IMG/VR virus record: IMGVR_UViG_3300014627_000002
Location: 13,618 to 77,617 of that record
Reading direction: 5' to 3' (one strand)
DNA length: 64,000 nucleotides
Origin: a virus
In this document: positions 1-46,605 of the stretch, one piece after another
Numbering within the stretch: the stretch's first letter is position 1
How the letters are laid out: each line of letters starts with the position of its first letter
Notes under the pieces: generated by a model
The model's input: the letters and a program-made list of their open reading frames with translations, nothing else
The model's database searches: none
What the model was told of the DNA's origin: nothing
Translations under genes and position numbers: made by a program

Positions 1-2
1 TG

Positions 3-1367
3 TCACAAGATGATCTTGCTGGACTGACCCACTTAGCAAGCTACCGGCGTAATGACAGTATAGAAAGTGATCATAATATTGTCAACACCATGTTCGATGA
101 TGCGAACGCTGATGATGCCGAAGTGCTCAATATGTTCATCATTGCCGAAGGTCAGGTTGCTGAACCGGAAGATGTGCCTGAACCTGCACAGGTGCCAGAG
201 GGCTTTAATCTGGTTAATCCTTCAGATGGTTACTGGCAGCTACGCCGTGAAGGGGTAAACCGCTTTGTAGTCATTATGGGGGACAAGAACGGCTATCAGG
301 CCCAAAGCCAGAGCGCGTCTTCAACCATTGTTAAAAGCTTGGATTCAGCAATTGCTTGGGGCGTTACCTTGTTAAACGACCTTCATCAAGACCTTATGGC
401 CAAGAATGAGCAAGAACAGGATCTTATTAATAACTGGCGTGATCAAATTCCTGCAAATCTTGATAAAGAGCTATTTTTAAAGGCTTTTGATATGGTGAAG
501 GACCATACCGTTAAACATGAATGGAACTGGAATGATGCCACGATCTTTAATTTCTTGGTTAAATCCTTCGAGCGTTTTGAACAGGCTCATGCATCTGTCG
601 GTTTTTTCTTTCAGCTATCAAATGAAATTCTAAATAACGGGGTTAATGAGCTAAGCCGCAAGCTATACGCCTTATATACCAATGGTGATGTGGTATTAGC
701 TGGCCAAAGCCAAAAAGCAGGTAAAGAACGCATGCAGGAATATGCAAAAACCGTCTTTACTCAAGATCAGCTTGATCAGTATGAAGCGGATAAGATTCAA
801 GCTGAAAAAGATGAAATCGAAGCAAAAAAAGCAGCTTTAGAACAGGAATTGCGGGAGTCAGTTAAAGTTATCTGGATGAGTATACCGGCAGGTGATCGGG
901 GGATGATGCAAGGCTGGCTTAACAGTGGTTATGACATGGTTCGGGTGAAAAAGGGCGCAACCTATCGTTATCAATTTACCAATCCAGACGGCAGCGCCTA
1001 CCGGGTCCAAAATCATCCATCTTATAAAAAAGCTGAACAGGCCGCCAAAGCCGCCGATGCTACCTATGGTTCATTGCGTAAAGCCCTGACTGAATTAGGC
1101 ATTATTGAGCTGCCTAAAGCTACTGAGCCAGTAAAAGACCCTATTGAAAAGGAAACTAATGCCAATACAGAAACTTCAAATCCAGAAAATGAAAGCCTGG
1201 CATTCCTTAATTCAGTTATTGCCGGTGAAGTCGATTTAAGTGCTGATTCAATTGGTGAACGTCTGGAAAGTATGGCTGAGAATCTGGACCCATCCTTAGA
1301 ACAATTATTTGAGCAAGCTGCTGATGCCTACGCTCAATTTGCAATTAAAAACGCTCAAAGCGTATAA
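3..1367 (+). CDS. hypothetical protein, probably 5'-truncated by the window edge (member of the virion/polyvalent protein module)
   Basis: The frame of the listed 90..1367 ORF stays open back to nt 3 with no stop. No Shine-Dalgarno precedes the ATG at 90. Composition is acidic and coiled-coil-like, with no catalytic motif recognised. Confidence 0.5.
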   Translation, partial: SQDDLAGLTHLASYRRNDSIESDHNIVNTMFDDANADDAEVLNMFIIAEGQVAEPEDVPEPAQVPEGFNLVNPSDGYWQLRREGVNRFVVIMGDKNGYQAQSQSASSTIVKSLDSAIAWGVTLLNDLHQDLMAKNEQEQDLINNWRDQIPANLDKELFLKAFDMVKDHTVKHEWNWNDATIFNFLVKSFERFEQAHASVGFFFQLSNEILNNGVNELSRKLYALYTNGDVVLAGQSQKAGKERMQEYAKTVFTQDQLDQYEADKIQAEKDEIEAKKAALEQELRESVKVIWMSIPAGDRGMMQGWLNSGYDMVRVKKGATYRYQFTNPDGSAYRVQNHPSYKKAEQAAKAADATYGSLRKALTELGIIELPKATEPVKDPIEKETNANTETSNPENESLAFLNSVIAGEVDLSADSIGERLESMAENLDPSLEQLFEQAADAYAQFAIKNAQSV

Positions 1368-1376
1368 GGTGACGTC

Positions 1377-2684
1377 ATGCTAACAGCAGTACAAAAGATT
1401 AAATTATCGCGTGAGAGCGTTAGCTTGGTGGCTCAATTAGCTGAGCTAAAGGGCATGGCCAAGATTAAAGCAGCTCGCCGCTTAAATGAAATTACTGTAT
1501 TGCTTGGGGGCGGCCAAAAGGCCGACCCATTAACCAAGCAAGGCGCTGATGAATTTCATGAAAATCTGAAAACGGCGATTGGTCAAGATTCAGGGGTGGA
1601 CCTCACGCCATTTGAACGGATTGTTCAGAACAATGAAATCACGATTGAAACACTGACAGGTGCAGTGGCATCAACTAAAGCGCTATTAAATAGCGTAAGT
1701 ACACCGCCTATTTTTTTGGAAGCTGTAAAAACGGTTACAGCCAAGCTAGAAACGGGTGAGCTCTATGACAGTTTAGGCCATGCCGCTGTTAGCTTGGCCA
1801 ATGACATTAATAGCATTATTCAGATGCATGATGTGCTTGCTCAAACGGCCGCAACCAGTGAGTTAAATACAGGGGTAGAACCGACTCAAGAGCAGCTGGA
1901 AGCAAATCAATATCAAGTCGCTCATATCAAGATTGCAGGCATGGATATAGCTATTGAAAATCCAGCCGGAAGTATCCGCCGTGGCGTAGATCAGGATGGC
2001 CATGCTTGGGAAACTACTATGTCAGCCCATTACGGATATTTTGAGAATACTATGGGTGCCGATGGGGATGAACTTGATGTGTTTGTCGTACCAGGTATAG
2101 ATGCAGATTATGATGGCCGTGTATTTGTGGTCCATCAAATTGACAGTAAGGGCAATTTTGATGAGCACAAGATTATCTTGGGTGTAACATCAAAAGCTAC
2201 AGCGCTGGCACTTTACCAGGCGCATTATGATGAACATTTTAATAGTGTCGGCAGTATTCATGAATATAGCCTTGAAGATTTTAAGGCCAAGCTTCAGCAG
2301 CCTACTGCACTATTTGACTCATTGCGGCCAATGTTGCTTGATTCATGGGTGAACGATGGCCGTTTTGACCTGTTGCCCATTAAAAAACTGGACCTGAATG
2401 GCCTAGATGATGGGGCTAAAGAGCCAAAGCCTTCAATTAAAGAGCCTATTGTAGTTTTACTGCACGGTAGCAAGTATCTGGTAATTCATGGCCGAAAACG
2501 TATGGAACTGGCTTTTAAAAATTCTGAGTCATTTATCCCGGCTATTGTGTTTGCTCAAGATCAGGGTTACACCAGAGCTGACGTGCAAAAGGCGATGAAA
2601 CAATGTGGCAATGTGGTGCATGCTGAAGCGCTGGCGGCATTGATTGAACATAATGCTGCCAAAAGACTAGAAGCCGCCATATAA
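1377..2684 (+). CDS. polyvalent-type protein with inorganic-pyrophosphatase-like and ParB/Srx-like domains
   Basis: SD AAGGTGA lies upstream. Residues ~185-300 fit the family-I pyrophosphatase pattern (YGYFENT, exact D-G-D-E-L-D-V signature at nt 2061-2081, DEHKIILGV). Residues ~355-395 (PIVVLLHGSKYLVIHGRKRMELAF..IPAIVF) fit a ParB N-terminal-type domain. Confidence 0.75.
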   Translation: MLTAVQKIKLSRESVSLVAQLAELKGMAKIKAARRLNEITVLLGGGQKADPLTKQGADEFHENLKTAIGQDSGVDLTPFERIVQNNEITIETLTGAVASTKALLNSVSTPPIFLEAVKTVTAKLETGELYDSLGHAAVSLANDINSIIQMHDVLAQTAATSELNTGVEPTQEQLEANQYQVAHIKIAGMDIAIENPAGSIRRGVDQDGHAWETTMSAHYGYFENTMGADGDELDVFVVPGIDADYDGRVFVVHQIDSKGNFDEHKIILGVTSKATALALYQAHYDEHFNSVGSIHEYSLEDFKAKLQQPTALFDSLRPMLLDSWVNDGRFDLLPIKKLDLNGLDDGAKEPKPSIKEPIVVLLHGSKYLVIHGRKRMELAFKNSESFIPAIVFAQDQGYTRADVQKAMKQCGNVVHAEALAALIEHNAAKRLEAAI

Positions 2685-2688
2685 ACAT

Positions 2689-2715
2689 AAAGCCCGCGAA
2701 ATGCGGGCTTTTTTA
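2689..2715. terminator. bidirectional rho-independent terminator
   Basis: AGCCCGC-GAAAT-GCGGGCT stem-loop followed by a T-run and preceded by A-rich sequence. It sits between convergent genes. Confidence 0.75.
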
Positions 2716-2729
2716 TAACTAAAAACTAC

Positions 2730-3044
2730 TCATGCTGGGCGGGTTATAAGATTGTAAGTAGAAAGGTAACTCATATTGGTGTACCCGTTTTTGATGAACA
2801 TATCTTCATGCTTATCGATGAAATACTGTCTTGCCTGAAGGCGTTTTAGCTCGATACTAATATGATTGCGGCTAGATTGTCTTAACTGCTCATCTTGTAA
2901 TTTTGTCTGCAGGTCTTTGATCAGGTTTTTATGATGAGCTCTTATTTTCTCAATAAATGCTTCTCTACTTTCTGGTGTATTAGAACAAACGAGATCCAAG
3001 ATTACCTCATTGCAGATCGTAAAAAATAGTTTTACCTGGTTCAT
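2730..3044 (-). CDS. hypothetical protein (isolated leftward gene, moron-like)
   Basis: 104-aa ORF opposite to the flanking rightward operons. The terminator lies at its 3' end and a GAAC-box array lies upstream of its start. Confidence 0.55.
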   Translation of the reverse strand: MNQVKLFFTICNEVILDLVCSNTPESREAFIEKIRAHHKNLIKDLQTKLQDEQLRQSSRNHISIELKRLQARQYFIDKHEDMFIKNGYTNMSYLSTYNLITRPA

Positions 3045-3082
3045 TTTATTTTCCTGTTATGTCATGCCAATAAATATACAAG

Positions 3083-3120
3083 CAAATGAACAAATGAACA
3101 ATAGAACAAATGAACATTTA
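3083..3120 (+). promoter_or_regulatory. 8-bp-phased GAAC-box array, site A
   Basis: CAAATGAACAAATGAACAATAGAACAAATGAACATTTA contains four AACAnnnG units in 8-bp register. It lies between divergent starts at 3044 (-) and 3204 (+). Confidence 0.6.
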
Positions 3121-3130
3121 TAAAAAAGTT

Positions 3131-3171
3131 TAGGAATATGGAAAAAACTGGAAATTTCTACTTCATAAAAT
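3131..3171 (+). promoter_or_regulatory. late-type promoter candidate (AGGAATA family)
   Basis: TAGGAATATGGAAAAAACTGG, then TAAAAT at motif positions 36-41. It lies 33 nt upstream of the 2117-aa gene. Confidence 0.55.
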
Positions 3172-3203
3172 GGGGGTGGTTCAACCATAAAACAGAGTAG
3201 GCT

Positions 3204-6200
3204 ATGCCATTCAACAATACTGCCCGTGCGGGTTTGCAAGTTTTTTCAGATGCTTTATCAGCACTGAAAAACAAAGTTTCCCCATCTCATGCACCAACTG
3301 GTGTATATGAATTTCAAGATGAGAAAATTACGCCAACCAAGCGCCAGAAGGCAAACAATGCGGCCGTAAGTCTGTTACGGCAATTACAGAATGAATCGGG
3401 GTTAAAGGCGACAGCTGAACAGAAGGTCACTTTATCGCGGTACACCGGTAAAGGGGGAAATTTAGAAGTAGAAGGGGTAAAGGGGAGCCAATATGAATAC
3501 TACACACCGGTCCCTTTAGCTAATGCACTGTGGGACCTCTTAAAAGAACATGGCTTTGACGGCGGCGCCGTACTCGATCCTTGCGCGGGGACTGGTATTT
3601 TTGCAGCTGGCCGACCTGAATCAGTGGTGATGCAGTCCGTAGAGCTTAATGATGTTTCTGGCGGTATTAATGCGTTGGTAAATGACCAGGCAAATCACAA
3701 TGTCATTGTAAGCCCTTTTGAGAAAATCGCTTCTCAGACGCAAGACAATGTTTATGATGCTGTTATTACTAATGTGCCGTTCGGTTCACGTGGAGATCGG
3801 GGCGATAATGCCCGCCATGATATTTATTCAGATGATGATTTAGACTCATACTTTGTTAAACGGTCAATTGACAAATTAAAGCACGGTAAACTGGCCGTAT
3901 TTATTGCTCACCCAAAATTACTTACGGGTGCCGGTCATAAGAAGTTCCGTCAATATATTTCTCTACGTGCTGAACTGGTGGGAGCATACCGCCTGCCTAA
4001 CAAGGTATTCCAAGCTACAGGCGCAGATGTAGTAACTGATGTTCTGGTATTTCGCAAACATACTGAAGAACTGACACAGAAAATTGAAAACCTATATGAC
4101 AATGGTTCACTTCAAGTACTTCAAGATTCCCGCATTCTGGATGCCGATATAATTGACGGTCGATATTACAAGGCTGAAGGTCAAAAAAACGTACTTGGCC
4201 AAAGTACGATAGTCAAACATGCAAAATTTAAAACAGATGTAGAAGCTGTTTTAAGTGATGAAAGCCTGCCGAATATCTTAAAACTGATTCGCCGTTTTCC
4301 AGACAGCCGTATTAATTATGGGATGCTGGAATTAACAGAAATGAAGCCAGTTTTACCGATACAAGAAGGTGATATTCGTGTCATCGGCGGCACTACATTT
4401 GAATATCAGGATGGTAAATGGATTAGCACAGGCCAGACAGCCACTTATAGTAATGCTGAAAGCTTTAGTAAGGCCCTCACAGCTTTTATGTCAGGCATGA
4501 CTTATGTTGATCTGATGGCTTATCAGAGTCATTGTGTGGCATCACATTACAAGTTATCTGCATGGGCTGGCCAGTTAATTGATGTAGTACAAAGCACAGG
4601 TGTAGAAACTTATGCACACTGGCTGGTCCAGTTTGCACTGTATGAAGCTTTACAGGCCGAAGCCTATAACAGCTATGCTCAGAACTATCCTAAGCTTACA
4701 AGTGCTTTAAAGGGCATCGCGGGGCAAGTTGGTAAAAAACCATATAAACATGCTTCAGTTAAGACCCTGGTAACGTTTAACAGTAAGGCTTTCGATAAAA
4801 ATTCAGCTGATGGCCTGTCAGCCTATTGGTATGGCAGCACTATTGAAATTGCACAGGCACTAGATGCCAAAGGCGCTTATGAAAATGCAATTTATATGGG
4901 TCGTGCTAAAGACTTTATGGTATCCGTTGATGAAATCCGGCAGACCGATCCTAATTTTGACCCATTGGCTAATGAAGATTATGCAATTTCAGGGGACGGT
5001 CAGTATGTCACGTTAAATCGGGACTATTACACGGGCAATCACGGCGAATTTTTACAGCAGATTGATGCACAGATTGAAGCCGCAACAGATCCTAAAATAC
5101 GTGCAAAACTGGTCCAGCAACGTAAAAAATCATTTGAGCATGTTGATTATGTCGATGTGGCCAATATTAATTTAGGTTTACGTGCTACCAACATTGATAT
5201 ACAGGTCAAAAGTGATTTTCTAAGCCTGTATGGTGGGGATGCAGTGACAGTCGATGAAGACGGTCGCATTCGCTTAAAAGACAAGCAAGAGCCATTAGAT
5301 CGCATTATCCGCATTATGAAGCGGGACGGGGTGCAAGGTGCTCAACATCGTTGGGTTCAAACGTTCTTCTTAAACCGTATCTTGGATTCAGTTAATAACA
5401 ATGTCCGCCTAACATTGAAGGCGAATAAGGATGAAGTATCTAAGCAGGATCATGACCTGGTATTTAAGGCTTTTTTAGAATATGCAAATGAGCTAGATGC
5501 AACCTTTAGTGCTTATCTAAAAGCCAATATCGGGTTTATGGAAGACCTAGATGCAAAAGTAAATGACCCAATGCATAAAGAAATGCAGAGTGAGCTAGAT
5601 ACTTCACCAGTAGAGGTCAAAGGCTTTGCACCTAAGTTTGCAACATTTAAAGCGATGCAGACTTATCAAAATGCAGAAGTACGCCGTTTAAGTCGCCGTT
5701 TTGAAGGAATTACCGGCTTTGATGTAGGTTTGGGTAAGACACTCACTTCAATTGCAGCTGCACAAAACCTGCATAATATTGGCGTTAAAAAGCGTACCTT
5801 GTTTGTGGTTCCATCACATACGATTTCTAAATGGTATCGTGATATGCAAATGTCGTTAGATGATTACAGTGATGTATTAGTCATCGGCTTAAAGGGCAAT
5901 ACACTAAGTTCGGTCAATAGTAGCCATTACGGTGCTGACTTAAACCTATTGCTTAGTGAACCCTATCGCAAGATCCTGATTACTAGTGATGCTTTCACTA
6001 TGATTCCGCTACGTGACCGCACCATTGAAAAATATTATGAAAGTAAAAAGGCAAAAATCGATTTTTCAAAAGATAAAGACCGAGAAAAATGGAACGCATT
6101 TATTGGCAAGAAAAAAGAACCACTTCAAAAAGATGTAGGCCGCCTACCATTTTTTGAGGACCTGAATATTGATAGCATCATTTTTGATGAAGCGCAGATG

Positions 6201-9200
6201 TTTAAAAATGGCGATGCCAGTGAAGGTTTTGGAAATTTCCAGTCTATTAAGGGCCTTTCATTATTAGCAGAAGCACAGTTATCGGACCGGGCAATTTCGG
6301 CCAAAATCAAGTCTGAATATGTTCGGGGTACTAACCCGCTTAAAGATGGTGTTGTATTGCTAAGTGCTACACCTGTAACCAATAGCCCGTCAGAAATTCT
6401 AACCATGCTGTCACTGGCCATAGGTGAGAAGAAAGCTAAAAATATGCTCGGTGGGGCTGCCATTGATTCTGTAGATGACTTTTTAAGTACTTTTGCTCAT
6501 ACCGAGTCAATTAGTGGGGTGGACCTGCTGGGTGCCGAACGTGCAGATGAAACCTTTACCGGATTTAAGAATGTCGAATTGCTTAAAAACGTTTTGCATA
6601 GTGTTGGAAACATTCAGACAGCGCGGGAAAATGATTTAAAAATTCCGGCTCAAGAAGATGTTAAAACAAATGTCAGTTTAGGTAGTGAAGACCGCCAGAC
6701 GCTTGCTGATCTGAAACGTGCATACAACATTGCCCGTCAAATGGGTAAAGGTGGGCCAGTCCTGGCAGATGAAGACGATATTAAGTTTTTGCATGAAATG
6801 ATGGGGAAACTTGGCGAATCTGAAACTTTGATCGGGCATCCATTTAACCTGATTACCAAAATGCAAGATTTGATCTTGATGGGAAGTGAGTCAGTACTTT
6901 CCCGAGCGATGTATGTCAATTACCTGCCTGAAGATCAAGAAAAGGCTCAAAAGGTTATTGATGACTTTAACAAAAAGCCAGTGAAGGTAACGTCTACTCG
7001 ATCCTTTCCATTGGTTGATAAAGCAGATGTAAAAATCAAAAAACGGGGAAAAACCATAGGTGATGCAGATGAACTTGAGATTACCGTTCGTGCTTTCCTT
7101 GATGAAGAAAATAACCGCATTGGCTTGACTGCAAACGATACAAAGGCAATTGCAGGACTAATGACCCTGGCAGATAAGGCTAAATTAGCCCTTAAACCTA
7201 AGCTGTCATCTAAAATGCAGGCACTTATTGATAATGTAAAAACAGAAATGGCTACGCCTAAACATAATGGTCACGCCAAGCAAATTATTTTCTGTGACAC
7301 ATTGGCCATGCATCACATTATCAAGCAGGCTTTGATTGAATACTGCGGAGTAGAAAAGTCCCGTATTGCAATTTTAAATGCTGCAATCAAGCCAGATGGC
7401 AGTAACGGCGCTGTTAAAAGTGAAGATGTTCAGGATATTCAGGACGGCTTTGCTACTGATAAATACACCATTGTCATTGCTAATAAGAAAGCTGATACCG
7501 GTATTGATCTGCAAAAAGGCACCCAGGCTATTCACCATTTAACAACCGGCTGGACACCTGATAGCTTGCAACAGCGTAATGGCCGTGGTGTACGTCAAGG
7601 TAATGAGCAAGAGCGCGTTAATGTGTATATGTATTCAGCAAATGGCTCATTTGATGAATATAAATTGCATGTGATTAATGGTAAATCAGACTGGATTAAT
7701 CAGTTAATGAATAAGGGAGCTACCGTATCTGGCACGCTGCAGGTATCTAGTGAGCTTACAGATGATGATTATGACCTGATGATTCAGGCAGACAGTGCCG
7801 AAGCCATTGAAGGGCTTTTAAAACAGCGTCAGGAACGCGAGAATCAAGCACGTCATGACCGGGCAGTTAAACATACTGATCTGTTAATCAAAATTGCAAA
7901 AAAAGCAGCGTCACAGGCAGACCGTACAGAGTCTAGTGTTGCTCAGGAAATCATTATTAAGGATTACGAAAAGTACATCACTTTAATGCGCCGTGATGCT
8001 AAGGCAGAGGACGCGGCTGAACGTAACCAGATCCTAGAGCAAAAGCAGGCCATTGTAAGTCAGTATGATAGTTATCTGAAAAATAACAGTGTTGAAAATT
8101 GGGATAGGGGTTTAAAGCGCAAGGCAGAGGAAAAAGGCCAGGCATCACTTTGGTTGTCTTCATTACATCATTCTGGTTTTGAAGTCGCTGCAACAGAGTT
8201 CAGTAAATTAGATGAGCAAGTTTTAAATTCTGATACCTCACTTTCAAGCCGTGCAAAAGCTAGTTTTCAGTCATTAAAACGTATGGCAGACAGTACACGT
8301 GAACAGCTTTTAAAATATGCAGACAGTCCATTTACTGATGAAGAACGGGCCATGTTACTTGATGGTACCGCCGTTCTTGATGAGAACCAGCAAATCTTAA
8401 AGCATGGTGATCTTTTAAAGGCAGAAGGAAGTAACGGCGCTATATACGGTATGCGTGTTATTGCTGAATCTCAAGACTACTATACTTTCACTGAAAGCTT
8501 TGTCCGTAATAGACAACCAATTGAACCGCATGAGCGTGATGCAGCAATTCAAAGCTTTATTGCTTATGAAACACAGTTGCTAAAAAAGAATGAGGTGTTC
8601 AGTTACGGTAGTTTAAATAGCGAAACATTAAACTCAAATAAACGCTTTAGCCGGGTTTATCCAGAGATCCAGACAGCAGTTGAAGAACAGTTGAAGGCAG
8701 AGCATGATAACTGGATTCACCAGAGTAGCGTATACAACAGTCCAGGACTCCAATTGAAGTCCAACCATGCTCTACACTGGCCAGAAATTACCTTTCCTCA
8801 ATTCTTTAAAAATAACTTGCAGCTGGCGACTGTTTTTAATGCGCCATTTTCAGGAATCATTGAAAGTATTGAACTCGGTGATGCAATTGCTCGAGTCAAA
8901 ATTCCTAACACTAAAGCGGACTTGGTGCAGCGTAAATATCCGATGAATCTAACTCGCTTGGCTGAGCAAATTTTTTCAGTAGCTGAAACAGAAAAAATTG
9001 CGGTAGATTTACAACATGCTGAATCTATTATCAATAATGAATTTATGTATTACTTTGCAGAGAAAGTAGATAAAGCTTTATCTGCATACTATAAGGGAAG
9101 TTTAAAGCTGCTTTATCCGCATCATACAGTCTTGACTGATGACCAAAAGGTAGAGATTGCAGAATATATTTTAGAACATGCTTTAAATGGCTTAGTAAGT

Positions 9201-9557
9201 TCTTATACACATCTAATGGAATGGGTACAGGAAAAGTCTGCATTTAAAGGAATTCTAAAGCTATATGCATTAGATGATAATGACCCCGAAGTTATTGTAA
9301 AACAGCATGTAAAACTACACGGCGGCATGGGTAAATTTAAGAATATTAAAATTACTGGTGTAGCTTTCTTGGGTACCGGCAGTTTTGGAGCAGCTTTCAA
9401 GTCAACCTATAAAGATGATATGAAGGCGTATGCTGACTCGATCCGTAAGCGTTGTGCTTGGGACAACCGCAATACCCGTTGGGTAGTTGAACCTGAAGTC
9501 ATGGTATGGATGATGAAACAGGACTGGTTTAATATGAATGAAGTAGAATTTTACTAA
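3204..9557 (+). CDS. giant N6-adenine methyltransferase / SNF2-family helicase fusion (P1 DarB-like anti-restriction protein)
   Basis: 2117-aa ORF. The N-terminus has gamma-class MTase motifs (LDPCAGTGIF, then ITNVPFG). Helicase motifs are GFDVGLGKT (~nt 5727), IIFDEAQ (~nt 6184) and QQRNGRGVRQG (~nt 7569). The architecture matches P1 DarB. Confidence 0.85.
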   Translation: MPFNNTARAGLQVFSDALSALKNKVSPSHAPTGVYEFQDEKITPTKRQKANNAAVSLLRQLQNESGLKATAEQKVTLSRYTGKGGNLEVEGVKGSQYEYYTPVPLANALWDLLKEHGFDGGAVLDPCAGTGIFAAGRPESVVMQSVELNDVSGGINALVNDQANHNVIVSPFEKIASQTQDNVYDAVITNVPFGSRGDRGDNARHDIYSDDDLDSYFVKRSIDKLKHGKLAVFIAHPKLLTGAGHKKFRQYISLRAELVGAYRLPNKVFQATGADVVTDVLVFRKHTEELTQKIENLYDNGSLQVLQDSRILDADIIDGRYYKAEGQKNVLGQSTIVKHAKFKTDVEAVLSDESLPNILKLIRRFPDSRINYGMLELTEMKPVLPIQEGDIRVIGGTTFEYQDGKWISTGQTATYSNAESFSKALTAFMSGMTYVDLMAYQSHCVASHYKLSAWAGQLIDVVQSTGVETYAHWLVQFALYEALQAEAYNSYAQNYPKLTSALKGIAGQVGKKPYKHASVKTLVTFNSKAFDKNSADGLSAYWYGSTIEIAQALDAKGAYENAIYMGRAKDFMVSVDEIRQTDPNFDPLANEDYAISGDGQYVTLNRDYYTGNHGEFLQQIDAQIEAATDPKIRAKLVQQRKKSFEHVDYVDVANINLGLRATNIDIQVKSDFLSLYGGDAVTVDEDGRIRLKDKQEPLDRIIRIMKRDGVQGAQHRWVQTFFLNRILDSVNNNVRLTLKANKDEVSKQDHDLVFKAFLEYANELDATFSAYLKANIGFMEDLDAKVNDPMHKEMQSELDTSPVEVKGFAPKFATFKAMQTYQNAEVRRLSRRFEGITGFDVGLGKTLTSIAAAQNLHNIGVKKRTLFVVPSHTISKWYRDMQMSLDDYSDVLVIGLKGNTLSSVNSSHYGADLNLLLSEPYRKILITSDAFTMIPLRDRTIEKYYESKKAKIDFSKDKDREKWNAFIGKKKEPLQKDVGRLPFFEDLNIDSIIFDEAQMFKNGDASEGFGNFQSIKGLSLLAEAQLSDRAISAKIKSEYVRGTNPLKDGVVLLSATPVTNSPSEILTMLSLAIGEKKAKNMLGGAAIDSVDDFLSTFAHTESISGVDLLGAERADETFTGFKNVELLKNVLHSVGNIQTARENDLKIPAQEDVKTNVSLGSEDRQTLADLKRAYNIARQMGKGGPVLADEDDIKFLHEMMGKLGESETLIGHPFNLITKMQDLILMGSESVLSRAMYVNYLPEDQEKAQKVIDDFNKKPVKVTSTRSFPLVDKADVKIKKRGKTIGDADELEITVRAFLDEENNRIGLTANDTKAIAGLMTLADKAKLALKPKLSSKMQALIDNVKTEMATPKHNGHAKQIIFCDTLAMHHIIKQALIEYCGVEKSRIAILNAAIKPDGSNGAVKSEDVQDIQDGFATDKYTIVIANKKADTGIDLQKGTQAIHHLTTGWTPDSLQQRNGRGVRQGNEQERVNVYMYSANGSFDEYKLHVINGKSDWINQLMNKGATVSGTLQVSSELTDDDYDLMIQADSAEAIEGLLKQRQERENQARHDRAVKHTDLLIKIAKKAASQADRTESSVAQEIIIKDYEKYITLMRRDAKAEDAAERNQILEQKQAIVSQYDSYLKNNSVENWDRGLKRKAEEKGQASLWLSSLHHSGFEVAATEFSKLDEQVLNSDTSLSSRAKASFQSLKRMADSTREQLLKYADSPFTDEERAMLLDGTAVLDENQQILKHGDLLKAEGSNGAIYGMRVIAESQDYYTFTESFVRNRQPIEPHERDAAIQSFIAYETQLLKKNEVFSYGSLNSETLNSNKRFSRVYPEIQTAVEEQLKAEHDNWIHQSSVYNSPGLQLKSNHALHWPEITFPQFFKNNLQLATVFNAPFSGIIESIELGDAIARVKIPNTKADLVQRKYPMNLTRLAEQIFSVAETEKIAVDLQHAESIINNEFMYYFAEKVDKALSAYYKGSLKLLYPHHTVLTDDQKVEIAEYILEHALNGLVSSYTHLMEWVQEKSAFKGILKLYALDDNDPEVIVKQHVKLHGGMGKFKNIKITGVAFLGTGSFGAAFKSTYKDDMKAYADSIRKRCAWDNRNTRWVVEPEVMVWMMKQDWFNMNEVEFY

Positions 9558-9569
9558 GGCGGTACTACA

Positions 9570-10010
9570 ATGATTAATAAATTTTTGCCAGATATTGAAG
9601 GCTTAAAAGATATAACCGCTAATGTGCGTAGCACGCTGGCCAGCCGTGGTATTACTGATGAGATCAGCACGGTAGTTGCAAATATGCAAAAAAATGCAGA
9701 GTTGCAGGCAGTAAAGGGAATAGATACCTGGTTAAGCTACGGTGTTTATTTGCCTGCTGTTGAGCGTGTGATTGCACTTAATTCGGGTGAGTCTGAAGAA
9801 GATTTCTTTGCACGTACGCAATATCCCGTCAATGTAGTGGAAGCCTATACAGTAAAAGAAGATAGTCTGGCGACTTTAATAGCCGCTGATCAATACAGTC
9901 AGCTACATAAAAGTACTATGCCAAAAAATACCGCAGTATGGTGCCTAGATGAAGATGGACAGCACTATATTAACTTGCTTGAATATGAAAACCGTATGAA
10001 AGCAATCTAA
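9570..10010 (+). CDS. hypothetical protein
   Basis: 146-aa ORF 12 nt after the DarB-like stop, on the same strand, followed by a terminator. Confidence 0.6.
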   Translation: MINKFLPDIEGLKDITANVRSTLASRGITDEISTVVANMQKNAELQAVKGIDTWLSYGVYLPAVERVIALNSGESEEDFFARTQYPVNVVEAYTVKEDSLATLIAADQYSQLHKSTMPKNTAVWCLDEDGQHYINLLEYENRMKAI

Positions 10011-10025
10011 TATTAATCTCAGGAA

Positions 10026-10050
10026 AGCCCGTATAACACGGGTCTTCTTT
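10026..10050 (+). terminator. rho-independent terminator
   Basis: GCCCGT-ATAACA-CGGGT hairpin followed by CTTCTTTT. Confidence 0.55.
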
Positions 10051-10053
10051 TAG

Positions 10054-10078
10054 GTTTAAATGAACAAATGAACAAATA
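10054..10078 (+). promoter_or_regulatory. 8-bp-phased GAAC-box array, site B
   Basis: GTTTAAATGAACAAATGAACAAATA, immediately after the terminator. Confidence 0.55.
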
Positions 10079-10195
10079 CTCATTCTAAAGACTGATGGTT
10101 AGATTCTAACAATGTATATTAAATCATCAAGGCAGGGATTACGGCCCTAGACCTTTTATAAGCACTATCTAAGCGCTAGCAGAAAAAGGAAAGGT

Positions 10196-10236
10196 CAGGA
10201 ATAGTAAATTTCTGGCTTTTTTTAATATGTTTAAAT
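10196..10236 (+). promoter_or_regulatory. late-type promoter candidate (weaker AGGAATA family member)
   Basis: CAGGAATAGTAAATTTCTGG, then TTAAAT at positions 36-41. It overlaps array site C. Confidence 0.35.
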
Positions 10237-10268
10237 GTTCAATTGAACAAATGAAGGAATAAACAAAT
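10228..10268 (+). promoter_or_regulatory. 8-bp-phased GAAC-box array, site C
   Basis: TGTTTAAATGTTCAATTGAACAAATGAAGGAATAAACAAAT contains the perfect palindrome TGTTCAATTGAACA (10236-10249) and ends 1 nt before the ATG at 10270. Confidence 0.55.
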
Positions 10269-10269
10269 T

Positions 10270-10554
10270 ATGCGTGAAGCGAAAGATCATCCTAATTTTA
10301 GTGAGATCCTTCAGTATGGCCATACTGTTGAAGCCGACATTGCAATGTTTATGAATGGCGAATTTTGGCAGTATTACAAGCGGGGGGACTTTAGCACTAA
10401 AAACTATTGGTATTGTCTACCAGTACGCAACGGGCAGGCTCTTGGCTGGCGAAATGGCTATGTTGCATGTATGAACCAGCTAAAAGATTTTTATATAAAT
10501 ATGGGTAAAAAAGTTGAGCTTATAGAAATCAGGAATAAGGAAAAAACCTCATAA
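10270..10554 (+). CDS. hypothetical protein
   Basis: 94-aa ORF with AAGGAA upstream, followed by a strong hairpin terminator. Confidence 0.55.
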   Translation: MREAKDHPNFSEILQYGHTVEADIAMFMNGEFWQYYKRGDFSTKNYWYCLPVRNGQALGWRNGYVACMNQLKDFYINMGKKVELIEIRNKEKTS

Positions 10555-10571
10555 GGTAAATAGACAAAAAT

Positions 10572-10598
10572 AGCCCTATAAATTAATAGGGCTTTTTT
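10572..10598 (+). terminator. rho-independent terminator
   Basis: AGCCCTA-TAAATTAA-TAGGGCT followed by TTTTTT. It ends directly at the next ATG. Confidence 0.7.
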
Positions 10599-11372
10599 AT
10601 GGCTTTTATAAAACCGAAGATTGTGAACCAGGCTAAGCCAAGTACACAGTATGAAAATAAAAGCGATTGGGGGAACTTGTCAGATGTATACAAGATGCGC
10701 ATTCGCTTATGTGATAAAGAGGGAAACCTACTTGATCAATACGCTCAGCAAATCGTTGGAGTCGCCGTAGATGGCGATATATCCATAGATAATCAGTACA
10801 GCACACCATTTGAAAATTCAAATCCTGAACATCGATTACCTACTATGATGGGGATGCTGCAATCTGGTGATTGGGTAAATACGCTAGAGATCGGCTTATC
10901 AAATGTATTTGGCATAGAGCTTAGCCAGGATAAGAAAGAATCTATTAACGCATTAGAAGGCCGGAGCAACTTAACTAAGGTTAATTCTACTCAGATATTT
11001 GTTGCAACCCAGCCAATTACAATTTCTACCACACTGTATTTTTCAGCTTGGCGTAGCGCAAAAATAGAAGTCGAACAGCAAGTAGCCTTACTTAAACAGT
11101 GGGCTTTACCCAACAAATTAGCTGACGGCAGCATTTTAGCCAGTGCGCTAGAAGATAAATCATTACTTTCATTATTTCCTTCTGAAGTACCGCCGTATGT
11201 GTCGATCTACTACGGAGGTAAGAAATATACCCCCTTATTAATTCAAAGCGTATCTGAACCATTAGTCGTGCCTATGACTGAAGACGGGGACCGTCTAGCG
11301 CTGCAGGTACCAGTCACATTTGTATCCCGTACAGCCTGGGATAAAGACAATATTTCTAAAATTTATTTATAA
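10599..11372 (+). CDS. hypothetical protein (possibly structural)
   Basis: 257-aa ORF. No motif was recognised with confidence. Confidence 0.6.
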   Translation: MAFIKPKIVNQAKPSTQYENKSDWGNLSDVYKMRIRLCDKEGNLLDQYAQQIVGVAVDGDISIDNQYSTPFENSNPEHRLPTMMGMLQSGDWVNTLEIGLSNVFGIELSQDKKESINALEGRSNLTKVNSTQIFVATQPITISTTLYFSAWRSAKIEVEQQVALLKQWALPNKLADGSILASALEDKSLLSLFPSEVPPYVSIYYGGKKYTPLLIQSVSEPLVVPMTEDGDRLALQVPVTFVSRTAWDKDNISKIYL

Positions 11373-11381
11373 GGTGAATCT

Positions 11382-12098
11382 ATGGCTTTTCCATTATTAA
11401 CAATTGGCAATGAAAAATATCAGCTAAATAATATCCTGTTAATGGACTTATTGGAGCTGGCAAAACTTAACCCCCAACATTATGAACATCAACTTACTCA
11501 GATTTTATCTACAGCTGTGGGGGATATTAAACAAGTCCAATCCATGACTGTGCATGAGCGTTATGCAGTATTTTTAAAATATTTATCAAAGACTGAAAAA
11601 CACAGTTTAGATAGCTCTATTAATATTGATGATTATTTAGTAAAGGATTTATCTGATTTTAATCGAAACCGGGTAACTGGAAAAAATAATGTTAGTGTCC
11701 GTCATTTAACTGGTGTAGATGCAGAAGCTTTAGAAATAGGCTGTGAATATACAGATGATTGGATACTTGGTGAAATGGCTATCACTATTGGTTGCGATTA
11801 TCTGCCTGCCCTAGATATTGAATATTCAGTAGATTATGCAGGAAATATCATACATAACCGCATAGAAAAATTAAAAAAACTAGATATAGATGAGTTTAAT
11901 GAACTCATGGATGATTATTTAGAAGCAAAGGATCAACTTAAAAAACTGGTTAATATTAGTTTTGATGATGGCATTGTTTTAGACAAAATTAATGGGGGTG
12001 CAGATGACGCTCCTGTTCGATTTCGCCCTCATACCGCCCTCTCAGGACACGCAAGAAAGCTTTTATCAATTGCTATTAAAGCGCGCTCAAAATCTTAG
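11382..12098 (+). CDS. hypothetical protein; possible upstream partner of a +1 frameshift pair
   Basis: 238-aa ORF. Its last ~35 codons overlap the next ORF, which is in the +1 frame. Confidence 0.6.
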   Translation: MAFPLLTIGNEKYQLNNILLMDLLELAKLNPQHYEHQLTQILSTAVGDIKQVQSMTVHERYAVFLKYLSKTEKHSLDSSINIDDYLVKDLSDFNRNRVTGKNNVSVRHLTGVDAEALEIGCEYTDDWILGEMAITIGCDYLPALDIEYSVDYAGNIIHNRIEKLKKLDIDEFNELMDDYLEAKDQLKKLVNISFDDGIVLDKINGGADDAPVRFRPHTALSGHARKLLSIAIKARSKS

Positions 12099-16716: not shown

Positions 16717-17406
16717 TTAACTGTCTTTGTTTAGCAGATTTCTATTAAGCACCTGCTTCACTGTTTTTGCATACCAGAGCCCGCCATGCTTGCTTTTAAT
16801 AGCCTGTTTATTCAGTGATGATGCTATTTTTCTATATCCAAAACCCTGTTGTTTAAGCTCAAGCATAAGCGTTATGGTCTGTTGTTCATCCGGGTTCTGC
16901 ACCAGGTTATCTTCTTCTTTGTCATATCCATACGGCACATGCGAGTACACCTTGTCATTTGCACGTAAATAGTCAATAACCAGCTTTGTACGCTCAGATA
17001 TTTGGTCGCGTTCAAACTGGTTGAGTACTGCCAGAATGCTAAATACCATTCTGCCCGTGGCGCCAGTAGTATCAATATTTTCAGATAGGCTAACCATATC
17101 AGCGCCAGTTTTATTGATGTACTCAGCTATTGATAAGGTATCGATAGTATTACGGCTAACCCGGGAAAGGCTATAAAAGACAAATACCATGTCTTTCTCT
17201 AATGAATTTAAGGCTTCTTTTAATTTTGGCCGGTTAATAACTTTCTTTCCTGAAATCCCTTCATCAATAAAAATCTGGACCAATTCATAATTATGAAAAT
17301 TGGCCCATTGTTTGATTTTTTCAGTTTGTGCTTCTAATGAAAGTCCATCTTGTGCCTGTTTCAGTGTGCTCACACGTACATAGCCGATAGCTTTTCTCTT
17401 AATCAC
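16717..17406 (-). CDS. serine recombinase (resolvase/invertase catalytic domain plus the start of a large-serine-recombinase-type recombinase domain)
   Basis: The N-terminus is IGYVRVSTLKQ...GLSLEAQ. The C-terminal part, PYGYDKEEDNLVQNPDEQQTI..GFGYRKIASSLN..GGLWYAKTVKQVLNRN, resembles the beginning of the LSR recombinase domain. The protein then stops at 229 aa. Confidence 0.8.
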   Translation of the reverse strand: MIKRKAIGYVRVSTLKQAQDGLSLEAQTEKIKQWANFHNYELVQIFIDEGISGKKVINRPKLKEALNSLEKDMVFVFYSLSRVSRNTIDTLSIAEYINKTGADMVSLSENIDTTGATGRMVFSILAVLNQFERDQISERTKLVIDYLRANDKVYSHVPYGYDKEEDNLVQNPDEQQTITLMLELKQQGFGYRKIASSLNKQAIKSKHGGLWYAKTVKQVLNRNLLNKDS

Positions 17407-18357: not shown

Positions 18358-18407
18358 TTGTTTAAATGAAAAAATGTTCAAATGAACTAAAATTCATTTG
18401 AACATTT
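18358..18407 (+). promoter_or_regulatory. 8-bp-phased GAAC-box array, site D (parA promoter / candidate centromere)
   Basis: TTGTTTAAATGAAAAAATGTTCAAATGAACTAAAATTCATTTGAACATTT has direct and inverted GAAC/GTTC boxes in 8-bp register. It starts 16 nt upstream of the parA ATG. Confidence 0.6.
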
Positions 18408-26548: not shown

Positions 26549-26590
26549 ATGTTTAAATGAACAAAAGAACATTTAAACAAATAAACAAAC
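26549..26590 (+). promoter_or_regulatory. 8-bp-phased GAAC-box array, site E
   Basis: ATGTTTAAATGAACAAAAGAACATTTAAACAAATAAACAAAC. Confidence 0.55.
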
Positions 26591-29321: not shown

Positions 29322-29380
29322 TTGTTCATTTAAATAATCTATGTTTAAATGAACAAATGTTCAAATGAACAAATAAACAT
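29322..29380 (+). promoter_or_regulatory. 8-bp-phased GAAC-box array, site F (longest)
   Basis: TTGTTCATTTAAATAATCTATGTTTAAATGAACAAATGTTCAAATGAACAAATAAACAT ends 14 nt before the ATG at 29395. Confidence 0.6.
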
Positions 29381-29931: not shown

Positions 29932-30303
29932 ATGACTGCTAAATATCTGGCACTGAAATTGAATAAAAACCTGAAGTCGGTTCAGGTCAGTGGCCAATGG
30001 CTAATCATGGACGGCGACAAGGAAGTGGCTAAGTCTTATTCGCCACAATCCGCATGGAATGATGCCTATAACAAACTTGCTGAAAAGCAGTTTAAAACGG
30101 GTGATCTGGTCGTAATGGAAAACTGCCTTGAAGCATCGCGTTATGTGGATAAGGTTTGGAAATGTCGATCTGATAGTTTTAAGGCCGCCAGCGGTGATTT
30201 CGCCGTATTTCTTGAGAATTTTGGTGGCTATTTTTGTTGTGAGTTTCTACGGCCAGCAACCAGTCTGGAACAGCACAATTTTTTAAATGGTGGTGAAGCA
30301 TGA
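29932..30303 (+). CDS. hypothetical protein
   Basis: 123-aa ORF with an ATGA overlap to the next gene. Confidence 0.6.
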   Translation: MTAKYLALKLNKNLKSVQVSGQWLIMDGDKEVAKSYSPQSAWNDAYNKLAEKQFKTGDLVVMENCLEASRYVDKVWKCRSDSFKAASGDFAVFLENFGGYFCCEFLRPATSLEQHNFLNGGEA

Positions 30304-30689
30304 GGCATGGGACCGTAAGTGGTTATAAATATCATCGTTGCAGATGTTCATTGTGTCTAAAAGCGGTATATGACTATAACAAAAAGCTCAAAGTAGACAG
30401 AAAAAGTAAGCCTAAGTTTGTTTATCCAAAGCCTTTAGCTCATGGTACGGCAAATGCTTATAGCTACCATAATTGCCGTTGTGAGTTATGCCAGGCATTT
30501 ATACGGGGTTATCGAATGGGGCTGAAAATCAGAAATGCAGAGCCTTCTACTGCTACACCTACGGAACCTGAATACTTTCAGCTCAAACATGAATGCGGGA
30601 CAGCAAGCGCTTACTCATTTGGCTGTAAATGTGAGCTTTGTTTAACCCAGGGACGTGAACTCTACCTGCAGTCGGTGAAAGCAGCATGA
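30300..30689 (+). CDS. triple (H/C)GT-x3-Y-x3-4-C-x-C-x2-C repeat protein (putative triple zinc module), paralogue of 46602..47015
   Basis: Three repeats are present: HGTVSGYKYHRCRCSLC, HGTANAYSYHNCRCELC and CGTASAYSFGCKCELC. Confidence 0.7.
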   Translation: MRHGTVSGYKYHRCRCSLCLKAVYDYNKKLKVDRKSKPKFVYPKPLAHGTANAYSYHNCRCELCQAFIRGYRMGLKIRNAEPSTATPTEPEYFQLKHECGTASAYSFGCKCELCLTQGRELYLQSVKAA

Positions 30690-44213: not shown

Positions 44214-44250
44214 ATGTTTAAATGAACAAATAAACAAATGAACAATAAAA
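44214..44250 (+). promoter_or_regulatory. 8-bp-phased GAAC-box array, site G
   Basis: ATGTTTAAATGAACAAATAAACAAATGAACAATAAAA. Confidence 0.55.
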
Positions 44251-45281: not shown

Positions 45282-45541
45282 ATCTAATTGAAAAATGCGG
45301 TGGACAAGGCCCAGCCGAAATAATTGCCGCTTTAGTGCTCTCAACTGTTGCATGCCCTGAAGGATATTTCCCTCAATTACAAAAATACTTTTCTGTAGTT
45401 GATGGCCATGTGTACCTCTACCACGAGAAAGAACGTCAATTTCTACCATATATGGATTTAGATAAGGTTTATCTCGACTACGTGTGGCTGAAAGATCTTA
45501 AAGCAGAACTCGAAGCATGTATGCAGGACGGTGCGGCATGA
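45278..45541 (+). CDS. hypothetical protein
   Basis: 87 aa with a GTG start overlapping the upstream stop. Confidence 0.5.
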   Translation: MNLIEKCGGQGPAEIIAALVLSTVACPEGYFPQLQKYFSVVDGHVYLYHEKERQFLPYMDLDKVYLDYVWLKDLKAELEACMQDGAA

Positions 45542-46605
45542 ATAAGATTTTATTTGGTGATTGCCGTGAAGTTATGGCCCGGCTGATTGATCAAGATATA
45601 AAGATTCAGACCTGTATTACTTCGCCGCCGTATTATGGCTTGCGTGATTATGGTGTAGATGGGCAGCTTGGACTCGAAGCCAGTGTAGATGAATACGTTC
45701 AGAATATGGTTGAAGTATTCCGGCTGGTACGTGAGCTGCTGCATGATGATGGCACACTTTGGTTAAATCTTGGTGACAGTTATGCAGGTTCCGGACGTGG
45801 TATGTCGAAAAAGGGGCTTAATGATGGAAAAAACCTTAAAACTAAGGGCTTGATATTACCTAGACAGAATATAGCGGAATCAAATTTAAAGCCGAAGGAC
45901 TTAATTGGTATTCCGTGGCGAGTCGCTTTTGCTTTACAGGCAGATGGCTGGTTTTTGCGACAAGATATAATTTGGCATAAACCTAACCCAATGCCAGAAA
46001 GCGTAACTGATCGCTGTGTTAAAGCACATGAATATATATTTCTTTTTAGCAAAGCTCGTAAATATTTCTTTGATCATGAGTCTATTAAAGAACCCCTAGC
46101 CGAAAGTTCACTAAAACGTATATCTCAAGATATTGAAAAACAGGCGGGGAGTAGTCGCGTTCCAGGTAAAACTAATGGACCAATGAAAGCAGTATTTAGA
46201 AGTAGTGGTAACAAGGCTCGCCGTTCCGGGACTGATCGTGGCTGTCCAGAGAATACAGGAAGTAATGTATGTGGCTCAATTCCCTGGGAGGGCATAACCA
46301 GAAATAAACGTAGTGTATGGACTGTCTCCAAAAAACCTTATAGCGGTGCGCATTTTGCAACATTTCCAATAGATTTAATTGAACCATGTGTTCTTGCAGG
46401 ATCTCGAGAGAATGATCTTGTACTTGATCCGTTTATGGGGTCTGGAACCACGGCGGCAGCGGCATTAAAACATGGGCGTAAATATGTCGGCTGTGAGTTA
46501 AATGAGCTGTACGGTCAGCTACAACAGGAACGTTTAAAAAAGTTGAATGAGGAAATTAAGTCTATTTCAAAACAACAAGACTTATTAGGTGGCATCACTT
46601 TATGA
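45538..46605 (+). CDS. DNA methyltransferase (N4C/N6A beta class, SPPY motif)
   Basis: CITSPPYYGLRDYG is motif IV. Also present are HKPNPMPESV and LVLDPFMGSGTTAAAA (motif I). ATG 45538 forms an ATGA overlap with the upstream gene. Confidence 0.85.
   Translation: MNKILFGDCREVMARLIDQDIKIQTCITSPPYYGLRDYGVDGQLGLEASVDEYVQNMVEVFRLVRELLHDDGTLWLNLGDSYAGSGRGMSKKGLNDGKNLKTKGLILPRQNIAESNLKPKDLIGIPWRVAFALQADGWFLRQDIIWHKPNPMPESVTDRCVKAHEYIFLFSKARKYFFDHESIKEPLAESSLKRISQDIEKQAGSSRVPGKTNGPMKAVFRSSGNKARRSGTDRGCPENTGSNVCGSIPWEGITRNKRSVWTVSKKPYSGAHFATFPIDLIEPCVLAGSRENDLVLDPFMGSGTTAAAALKHGRKYVGCELNELYGQLQQERLKKLNEEIKSISKQQDLLGGITL

Follow-up and report, generated by a model that had tools for sequence, protein, structure and literature searches.

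What do three large, consecutive, rightward open reading frames (ORFs) at the left edge of a viral DNA encode, and what would their products do together? The question is raised by positions 3 to 9,557 of a 64,000-nucleotide (nt) stretch (hereafter the window), which corresponds to positions 13,618 to 77,617 of IMG/VR virus record IMGVR_UViG_3300014627_000002. An original prediction, made without database searches, described this locus as a polyvalent anti-restriction module in which an ORF truncated by the window edge precedes a 435-amino-acid (aa) pyrophosphatase–ParB fusion (ORF2) and a 2,117-aa methyltransferase–helicase (ORF3), and all three ORFs are present as described (Table 1). Judged by homology, domain content, fold and synteny, the block is very probably a Dar ('defence against restriction') module of a P1-like plasmid-prophage that has relatives among Acinetobacter plasmids. 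It represents a known system in diverged form, inside the known polyvalent-protein framework, with a middle protein whose domains have been reshuffled.

A probable Dar module in diverged form

The product of ORF3 aligns with DarB of phage P1 across both the methyltransferase and the helicase. Specifically, BLASTP pairs ORF3 residues 47–409 with P1 DarB residues 47–392 (34% identity, 6e-57) and residues 764–1552 with P1 DarB residues 784–1608 (25% identity, 2e-65). Pfam matches above the gathering cut-offs place N6_Mtase at residues 96–299 (4.4e-12), SNF2-rel_dom at residues 833–1006 (8.5e-10) and Helicase_C at residues 1345–1466 (7.4e-06), and an Eco57I match also falls in the methyltransferase region. 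The individual motifs are located at residues 127 (CAGTG), 190 (NVPF), 842 (GLGKT), 995 (DEAQ), 1054 (SATP) and 1456 (QQRNGRGVRQG). Because motif I (CAGTG) precedes motif IV (NVPF), the N6-adenine methyltransferase is of the gamma class, and its proposed fusion to an SNF2-type helicase is borne out by the Pfam matches.

Homology searches at a broader scale give the same picture. When ORF3 is used as a tblastn query, P1, P7, D6 and other P1-like phages are recovered at 27–29% identity over residues 47–1552, and the best phage match is Xanthomonas phage Rb1, with 34% identity over residues 24–1529. ORF3 also matches PHROGs 11801 and 10089, which comprise a 2,269-position family and the annotation 'DarB-like antirestriction'. 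ORF3 thus encodes a genuine DarB homologue, with the P1 DarB architecture that had been recognized in the original prediction.

The first ORF belongs to the same system. Its upstream sequence, whose retrieval had been suggested as a way to complete the gene, was supplied by a near-identical contig (L003), where residues 650–1091 of a 1,091-aa DarA-like protein share 95% identity with the fragment in the window. Pfam identifies in this full-length protein a DarA_N domain (PF18788; residues 198–320, 5.6e-28), which lies outside the window, and an LPD3 domain (residues 506–619, 2.8e-18). BLASTP aligns the full-length protein with P1 DarA (1e-14, plus a collinear second segment at 6e-4), and the window fragment itself matches P1 DarA residues 318–407 (2e-4). 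On this homology, the ORF can be read as the C terminus of a DarA-like internal head (polyvalent) protein. In the same contig the portal gene is followed by a gene for a 234-aa protein and then by the DarA-like gene, such that the portal gene is two genes upstream of the latter.

Directly after ORF3 is a gene whose 146-aa product has the length of P1 Ulx, the gene for which is also directly downstream of darB in P1. PHROG 1629 ('Ulx-like anti-restriction') matches this protein over nearly its full length (5.8e-4), and BLASTP against P1 Ulx yields an E-value of 0.009, which points weakly to a probable Ulx counterpart.

In P1, the Dar proteins are internal to the virion, are incorporated stepwise with Hdf and DarA first and DarB last, and are co-ejected with the DNA, and the protection they provide is directed at type I systems (PMC9024508, PMC12810830). 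The type I restriction concerned is of the EcoK/EcoB class. Because of the homology with these proteins, we infer that the module works as it does in P1. In this model, two adjacent rightward units would be expressed, one encoding the DarA-like internal head protein followed by the 435-aa protein at the DdrA/DdrB position, and the other encoding the DarB homologue followed by the small, weakly Ulx-like protein. The Dar-type proteins would be loaded into the procapsid in order, with the DarA type first and DarB last, and would be ejected with the DNA, which they would guard in cis against type I restriction once inside the newly infected cell. The 435-aa protein might serve as a packaged accessory that aids DarB incorporation, as an injected hydrolase of pyrophosphate or of a nucleotide-like phosphoanhydride near the entering DNA, or as both.

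Several observations weigh against an assignment to the Dar system. The first 46 residues of ORF3 have no similarity to the capsid-targeting sequence of P1 DarB, with an equal or higher score obtained in 704 of 1,000 shuffles. In P1 DarB the targeting sequence comprises the first 30 residues. The lack of similarity says little, because the P1 Dar proteins themselves share no consensus targeting sequence (PMC9024508). At the other end of the protein, a profile of the C-terminal region reached the DarB of phage Rb1 and not that of P1. BLASTP comparisons of ORF2 with the 121-aa DdrA and with DdrB of P1 are not significant, the similarity to DdrA is weak, and Pfam finds in ORF2 neither the DdrB metallopeptidase nor PF18763. 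Since the metallopeptidase is missing and the ParB domain falls outside the DdrB subfamily (see below), ORF2 is a positional and probably functional analogue of DdrB, and not an orthologue or a member of that family. The Ulx similarity is likewise weak, given that a local iterative search did not reach P1 Ulx. Finally, no Hdf homologue was recognized; in contig L003, the 234-aa gene that precedes the DarA-like gene lacks similarity to P1 Hdf.

A middle protein with reshuffled domains

The family alignment divides ORF2 into four parts, namely residues 1–55, approximately 56–165, 172–306 and 312–435. The N-terminal portion (residues 1–62) matches PHROG 1855 'DdrA-like anti-restriction protein' (8.9e-5). 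A hidden Markov model (HMM) of the N terminus of the ORF2 family, searched against every ORF of the fetched loci, finds as its best non-self match a 271-aa protein that occupies the DdrA slot in a P1-like element of Vibrio metschnikovii (1.3e-4). Next comes a 158-aa ORF that lacks annotation and holds the corresponding position in Xanthomonas phage Rb1 (E = 0.057), and the model also aligns weakly with P1 DdrA residues 4–53. These DdrA-like matches are individually weak, yet they are consistent in position and register, and residues 1–55 may constitute a capsid-incorporation or interaction module. The region that follows (approximately residues 56–165) is conserved and has no family assigned; relatives of 540–660 aa carry an insert of roughly 100–230 aa near residue 147.

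The pyrophosphatase-like core that had been proposed for this protein corresponds to the InPase domain PF18823, a family defined for phage polyvalent proteins (PMC5512222). The match (6.6e-46) scores 156 bits against a cut-off of 26.8 bits and covers profile positions 2–134 of 135. The metal-binding motif DGDELDV (D-x-D-x-x-D), located at residue 229, aligns with DGDPLDV of solved pyrophosphatases, and 21 relatives that share 32–66% identity show no variation at residues E194, R201, Y219, D229, D231, D234, D262, E263 and K265. This alignment and the invariance of the metal-binding and catalytic residues make the domain look catalytically competent. Among proteins of solved structure, the best sequence match is an InPase domain at the C terminus of the portal of phage Pa193 (3.1e-23; PMC11456595), in keeping with fusions of this InPase clade to both portals and polyvalent proteins that had been noted before (PMC5512222). 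InPase and DdrB-ParB are both described as phage-type polyvalent-protein domains that are predicted to be packaged (PMC5512222).

The ParB/sulfiredoxin (Srx)-type domain proposed for the C terminus escapes Pfam, which returns no match to residues 312–435 at E ≤ 0.1; the two motifs on which the proposal was based are found at residues 372 (GRKRMELAF) and 387 (IPAIV). A 25-sequence profile of this domain ranks ParB/Spo0J, Noc and SbnI at the top among Protein Data Bank (PDB) sequences (E = 0.011–0.18), and the alignment 'PIVV..KYyVvHGrkRlelA....iPAIV' is in register with the ParB box, in which GERR stands opposite HGRKR. Furthermore, an AlphaFold model of the domain (mean predicted local distance difference test (pLDDT) score 85.8, predicted template modelling (pTM) score 0.79) was compared by Foldseek with the PDB, and all 50 of the top 50 matches belong to the ParB/Srx superfamily, including ParB, Noc, SbnI, PadC, KorB, the serine kinase SerK and sulfiredoxin. 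The best E-value is 6e-4 and the probabilities are approximately 1, with TM-scores of only about 0.4 and modest E-values. The profile ranking, the model and the structural matches thus agree with the original prediction that this is a ParB/Srx-fold domain, here in a divergent form as modelled; because the TM-scores and E-values are modest, its placement in a subfamily is loose.

The Gly-x-x-Arg of the nucleotide pocket is retained, as G61 and R64 (the glycine and the last arginine of the GERR-type box) are invariant. The glutamate of the GERR box is not retained, and the motif takes the form HG[RKNSQ][KNSR]R; in ORF2 the last arginine of HGRKR is R375. An hhalign comparison of this domain with DdrB-ParB is not significant (E = 0.09, probability 0.6%), and the ORF2 domain seems to resemble canonical ParB/Noc more closely than it does DdrB-ParB. 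This single-chain arrangement is found in the Acinetobacter lineage, in which one protein of 430–660 aa with a DdrA-like N terminus, InPase and ParB/Srx follows the DarA-like gene.

Comparison with P1, Vibrio and polyvalent proteins

Like the P1 Dar system, the locus combines a homologous DarB methyltransferase and helicase, a 146-aa gene right after darB, DarA_N upstream and a P1-like phage-plasmid as carrier. It differs from P1 in that the two Dar operons, which are about 7 kb apart in P1, are adjacent in the window, and in that DarA is enlarged to 1,091 aa and carries LPD3. The P1 operon has the order hdf-darA-ddrA-ddrB; in the window, ddrA and ddrB (ParB plus metallopeptidase) are replaced by one DdrA-like/InPase/ParB–Srx protein. 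In addition to the unrecognized Hdf, the DarB N-terminal targeting sequence and the C-terminal third of ORF3 are not alignable with P1.

A V. metschnikovii contig (JAHAMV010000014.1, positions 3000–11845 of the fetched locus L007) provides a further comparison, with the order lydA-lydB-hdf-like-darA-271 aa-53 aa-[ddrB-ParB + InPase]. From lydA on, this is the order of the P1 darA operon, as holin, LydB, an Hdf-like protein with DarA_N and a 1,495-aa DarA succeed one another. The protein in the DdrB slot carries InPase instead of the metallopeptidase, and a type III restriction–modification system and parAB adjoin. Thus, the presence of InPase in place of the DdrB metallopeptidase is a recurrent arrangement. 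Indeed, ddrB-ParB + InPase proteins of 614–704 aa from Vibrio P1-like phage-plasmids and Acinetobacter baumannii occupy the same slot, after darA and the gene at the ddrA position, and their InPase domains are 39–45% identical to that of ORF2. In these proteins ParB is N-terminal and InPase is C-terminal, whereas ORF2 has the reverse order, another ParB subfamily and the additional DdrA-like N terminus.

The closest DarB among phages, the Rb1 protein annotated as 'chromatin remodeling complex ATPase', shares with ORF3 both its 34% identity and two C-terminal islands. Rb1 also has contiguous Dar genes and a small gene after its DarB-like gene, but its DdrB slot is still occupied by a metallopeptidase protein. 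The unannotated 158-aa ORF mentioned above (PQ569993.1, positions 6095–6568 of fetched locus L001) is flanked by the Rb1 genes for the 'internal head protein' and the metallopeptidase, and it may be a missed ddrA-like gene.

The modules of the window are drawn from the vocabulary described for polyvalent proteins by Iyer, Burroughs, Anand, de Souza and Aravind in 2017 (PMC5512222), which includes InPase, ParB/Srx, DarA_N, LPD3, N6-adenine methyltransferase and SWI2/SNF2 helicase. Relatives carry these modules in single chains of about 3,000 aa, whereas here they are spread over three or four genes, and the ParB/Srx domain of ORF2 is detected by no Pfam model and is not of the DdrB-ParB type. 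Distant relatives have ddrB-ParB, InPase, LPD3, methyltransferase and helicase fused in proteins of 2,800–3,186 aa. For example, P0238 (3,186 aa) consists of ddrB-ParB, InPase, methyltransferase and SNF2, and P0151 (3,060 aa) consists of LPD3, ddrB-ParB and DarB, with the extra modules N-terminal in both. Therefore, the separate Dar genes of the window occur elsewhere as one polyvalent chain, and the polyvalent framing of the original prediction is appropriate.

The C-terminal region of the DarB homologue

The original prediction noted that about 700 residues at the C terminus of ORF3 have no recognizable motif. Such a stretch exists, but it is shorter (about 565 aa, residues 1553–2117), because homology with P1 DarB extends to residue 1552. 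A word-indexed protein search with this region returned nothing. When HMMER was run exhaustively against 1.84 billion cluster representatives, no more than five proteins were recovered at E ≤ 1e-3. Iteration within DarB homologues linked the region to the C termini of Acinetobacter and betaproteobacterial DarB-like proteins, and two conserved islands link it to the DarB of Xanthomonas phage Rb1.

A confident AlphaFold model built from a 22-sequence alignment (pLDDT 90.0, pTM 0.53) is multi-domain. Its N-terminal part is helical, a small unit is rich in beta structure, other parts are mixed alpha/beta, and an alpha-beta-beta-alpha unit forms the terminus. Foldseek with the whole model gave no significant match (best E = 0.12 in the PDB and 0.09 in BFVD), a comparison that may miss domain-level likeness, and a sequence-profile search against PDB sequences was also without a significant match. 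Only four positions (A, K, K and W) are invariant in the 22 sequences, and D, M and W are near-invariant. The suggestion that the C-terminal third supplies an additional effector activity gains no support from these results, which reveal no known fold and no conserved residues of a catalytic type. Because the invariant residues do not resemble an active site, a structural or interaction role is most likely for this region, rather than an enzymatic one.

Alternative roles and implications

A methyltransferase joined to a helicase could also be read as a system that protects the host. ORF3, with or without its neighbours, would then be a DISARM-, BREX- or type ISP-like methyltransferase–helicase of a defence or restriction system and would not be packaged. 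Defence cargo is frequent on phage-plasmids, the Vibrio relative has a type III restriction–modification system near its Dar operon, and NCBIfam partial matches of the helicase C-lobe include DISARM DrmD (5.3e-14), DpdE and an anti-phage PLD protein. However, these matches are far under the family cut-offs (51 versus 610 bits) and reflect generic SF2 motifs only, whereas the homology between ORF3 and DarB is collinear and full-length. Pfam finds no nuclease domain, and the neighbours of ORF3 are DarA-like, Ulx-like and head-morphogenesis genes in a slot that is conserved across relatives, unlike variable cargo. On scores and genomic context, the defence reading was rejected, and we regard it as very improbable.

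Within the Dar module favoured here, what ORF2 itself does is far less certain than the system-level assignment; the protein may be an adaptor, a phosphoanhydride hydrolase or both. If it were chiefly an assembly adaptor that recruits DarB to the procapsid, InPase and ParB/Srx would act as binding modules with no catalysis after injection. Its location in the DdrA/DdrB slot, its DdrA-like N terminus and the lost glutamate of the ParB box agree with this possibility, but the invariance of the pyrophosphatase metal-binding and general-base residues in 21 relatives would be unexpected for a purely structural domain, and the invariant glycine and arginine of the ParB/Srx nucleotide pocket are kept. 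A chiefly adaptor role is therefore possible but rather unlikely. The conserved catalytic residues and the fusion of InPase to a nucleotide-binding ParB/Srx fold would instead suit an injected counter-defence enzyme that acts against nucleotide-based immunity by destroying a nucleotide alarm signal, or that removes pyrophosphate for early nucleotidyl-transfer reactions, both of which were proposed by Iyer et al. for the InPase domains of polyvalent proteins (PMC5512222). No linked signalling-related domain was found and the genomic context is a Dar operon, and we consider a role of this kind improbable. Little credence is also given to a reading in which ORF2 is a new injected two-enzyme effector, with a divergent nucleotide-utilizing ParB/Srx domain and a pyrophosphatase that work together at the incoming DNA on a nucleotide or a phosphoanhydride. 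If this were true, the effector might destroy an immune nucleotide signal or pull a pyrophosphate-releasing reaction forward, which is distinct from classical antirestriction. Separately, the C-terminal region of ORF3 would, on this reading, form one or more folds unseen in solved or predicted viral structures.

The preferred assignment to a diverged Dar module does not overturn current understanding and would not surprise a specialist. To our knowledge, the mechanism by which the P1 Dar system protects DNA is not yet known, and diverged versions of the system can tell its indispensable parts from its interchangeable ones. On present evidence, the DarB methyltransferase–helicase core, the DarA_N domain and the small downstream partner gene are indispensable. 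The interchangeable parts are the DdrB metallopeptidase, which can be exchanged for a pyrophosphatase, the ParB subtype and the divergent DarB C terminus. The compact 435-aa InPase–ParB protein and the model of the DarB C terminus offer tractable targets for biochemistry, and Acinetobacter phage-plasmids bear on gene transfer in a clinically important genus.

Terminators, promoters and a dispersed motif

Table 1 Features of the Dar locus and its surroundings (window positions)
Feature	Positions	Strand	Basis or remark
DarA-like protein, C-terminal 454 aa	3–1367	+	Frame open from first base, cut by window edge; first ATG at 90; stop 1365–1367
ORF2, 435 aa	1377–2684	+	
ORF2 residues 1–55, DdrA-like N-terminal helical motif	1377–1541	+	PHROG 1855 and family HMM
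ORF2 residues 172–306, InPase domain	1890–2294	+	Pfam PF18823
ORF2 residues 312–435, divergent ParB/sulfiredoxin-fold domain	2310–2681	+	Profile search and AlphaFold/Foldseek
G+C-rich hairpin with T-runs, likely bidirectional intrinsic terminator	2689–2717	strandless	Sequence AAAGCCCGCGAAATGCGGGCTTTTTTAT and hairpin scan
104-aa ORF	2730–3044	−	ORF list; no family match
Sigma-70-like promoter of 104-aa ORF	3070–3043	−	TTGGCA-16-TAAAAT
Four tandem GAACAAAT-type units (3080–3116), then TTTATAAAAAA	3080–3127	+	77 nt upstream of ORF3 start (3204)
ORF3, DarB homologue, 2,117 aa	3204–9557	+	
ORF3 methyltransferase, residues 47–409	3342–4430	+	BLASTP versus P1 DarB; followed by DarB-specific linker
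ORF3 SNF2/SF2 helicase, residues 764–1552	5493–7859	+	BLASTP versus P1 DarB
ORF3 C-terminal region, residues 1553–2117	7860–9554	+	No known fold matched
Probable Ulx counterpart, 146 aa	9570–10010	+	Starts 12 nt after darB stop
Terminator-like hairpin, likely end of darB–ulx unit	10027–10043	+	Hairpin scan

The darA-type operon likely ends at a strong hairpin between ORF2 and a convergent 104-aa ORF, which is a putative bidirectional terminator. No Pfam, PHROG or NCBIfam family was found for the 104-aa ORF, and near-identical contigs likewise have it as a called gene. In the Acinetobacter johnsonii relative, an unrelated 273-aa forward gene (L006 11966–12787) stands in its place. This slot between the Dar operons looks like a site of variable cargo (a moron), and the 104-aa ORF probably does not belong to the Dar machinery. 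The original prediction had omitted this ORF as well as the likeness of the whole block to the P1 Dar system.

A late-type promoter had also been predicted above ORF3. From six annotated P1 promoters, the consensus of the P1 late (Lpa-dependent) promoter was taken as a 9-bp −22 box AAGTNACTT, four nucleotides and a −10 TANNNT element. The full pattern AAGTNACTT-N4-TANNNT has zero occurrences in the window, and the box alone is present at 13080, 15967, 44017 and 61014, none of which is near ORF3. Among the small ORFs around the terminase, comparison with PHROGs revealed no Lpa-like activator. Instead of a P1-type late promoter, the region upstream of ORF3 carries the tandem GAACAAAT motif, which is a candidate regulator-binding site or promoter for darB–ulx.

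This motif is dispersed across the window. With up to two mismatches, GAACAAATGAACA has 18 copies in the window versus 3.1 expected, 17 of which are on the plus strand, and the copies cluster in intergenic regions; repeat families D1 and D2 corroborate the tandem motif. It takes the form either of 8-bp GAACAAAT units in tandem or of the palindrome TGTT(C/T)AAATGAACA, often with ATGTTTAAAT ahead, and is found at 10051–10077, 10224–10268, 18359–18400, 26550–26587, 29342–29379, 44215–44244 and about 63132, in addition to 3080–3127. In the A. johnsonii relative (L006), a related variant precedes darB. This distribution suggests that the motif is likely a shared regulatory site. It cannot be called 'late', because the genes and operons downstream of the other copies have mixed or no assigned functions. 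A separate proposal, that GAACAAATGAACA itself is the P1 −22 box by its resemblance to the LPsit flank, was rejected, as the core of that box is the palindrome AAGTNACTT, which is missing upstream of ORF3.

The element and its setting

The window has a G+C content of about 40%. PHROG and homology scans of its remainder reveal a ParA-like partition protein, a replication initiator, a cI-type repressor and a serine recombinase, and the window also encodes a DnaC-like loader, an endolysin, a terminase, a tail sheath, tail proteins and PmgG-like head morphogenesis proteins. By this gene make-up, the window is a P1-like phage-plasmid. Megablast found no relative at the DNA level for positions 1–9600 among phages or for positions 1–12000 among plasmids, and no tRNA genes or Rfam families were found within the window. 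Near-identical contigs come from metagenomes and from one NCBI assembly. The named relatives at the protein level are Acinetobacter, and they include 71–79-kb non-mobilizable plasmids of Acinetobacter sp. WCHA55 (71.5 kb), A. defluvii (76.9 kb) and A. soli; the synteny of the Dar block is retained in these plasmids and in the A. johnsonii contig.

Three further features of the window were noted. A serine recombinase/invertase-like gene (16717–17406, minus strand) adjoins the partition region. In addition to the DarB methyltransferase, a stand-alone DNA methyltransferase (PHROG 67) is encoded at 45517–46605 on the plus strand. Small ORFs at 46602–47015 and 30300–30689 look paralogous, as their N-terminal 40 or so residues match the same HTH/HNH-associated PHROGs (14857, 4234 and 24671).

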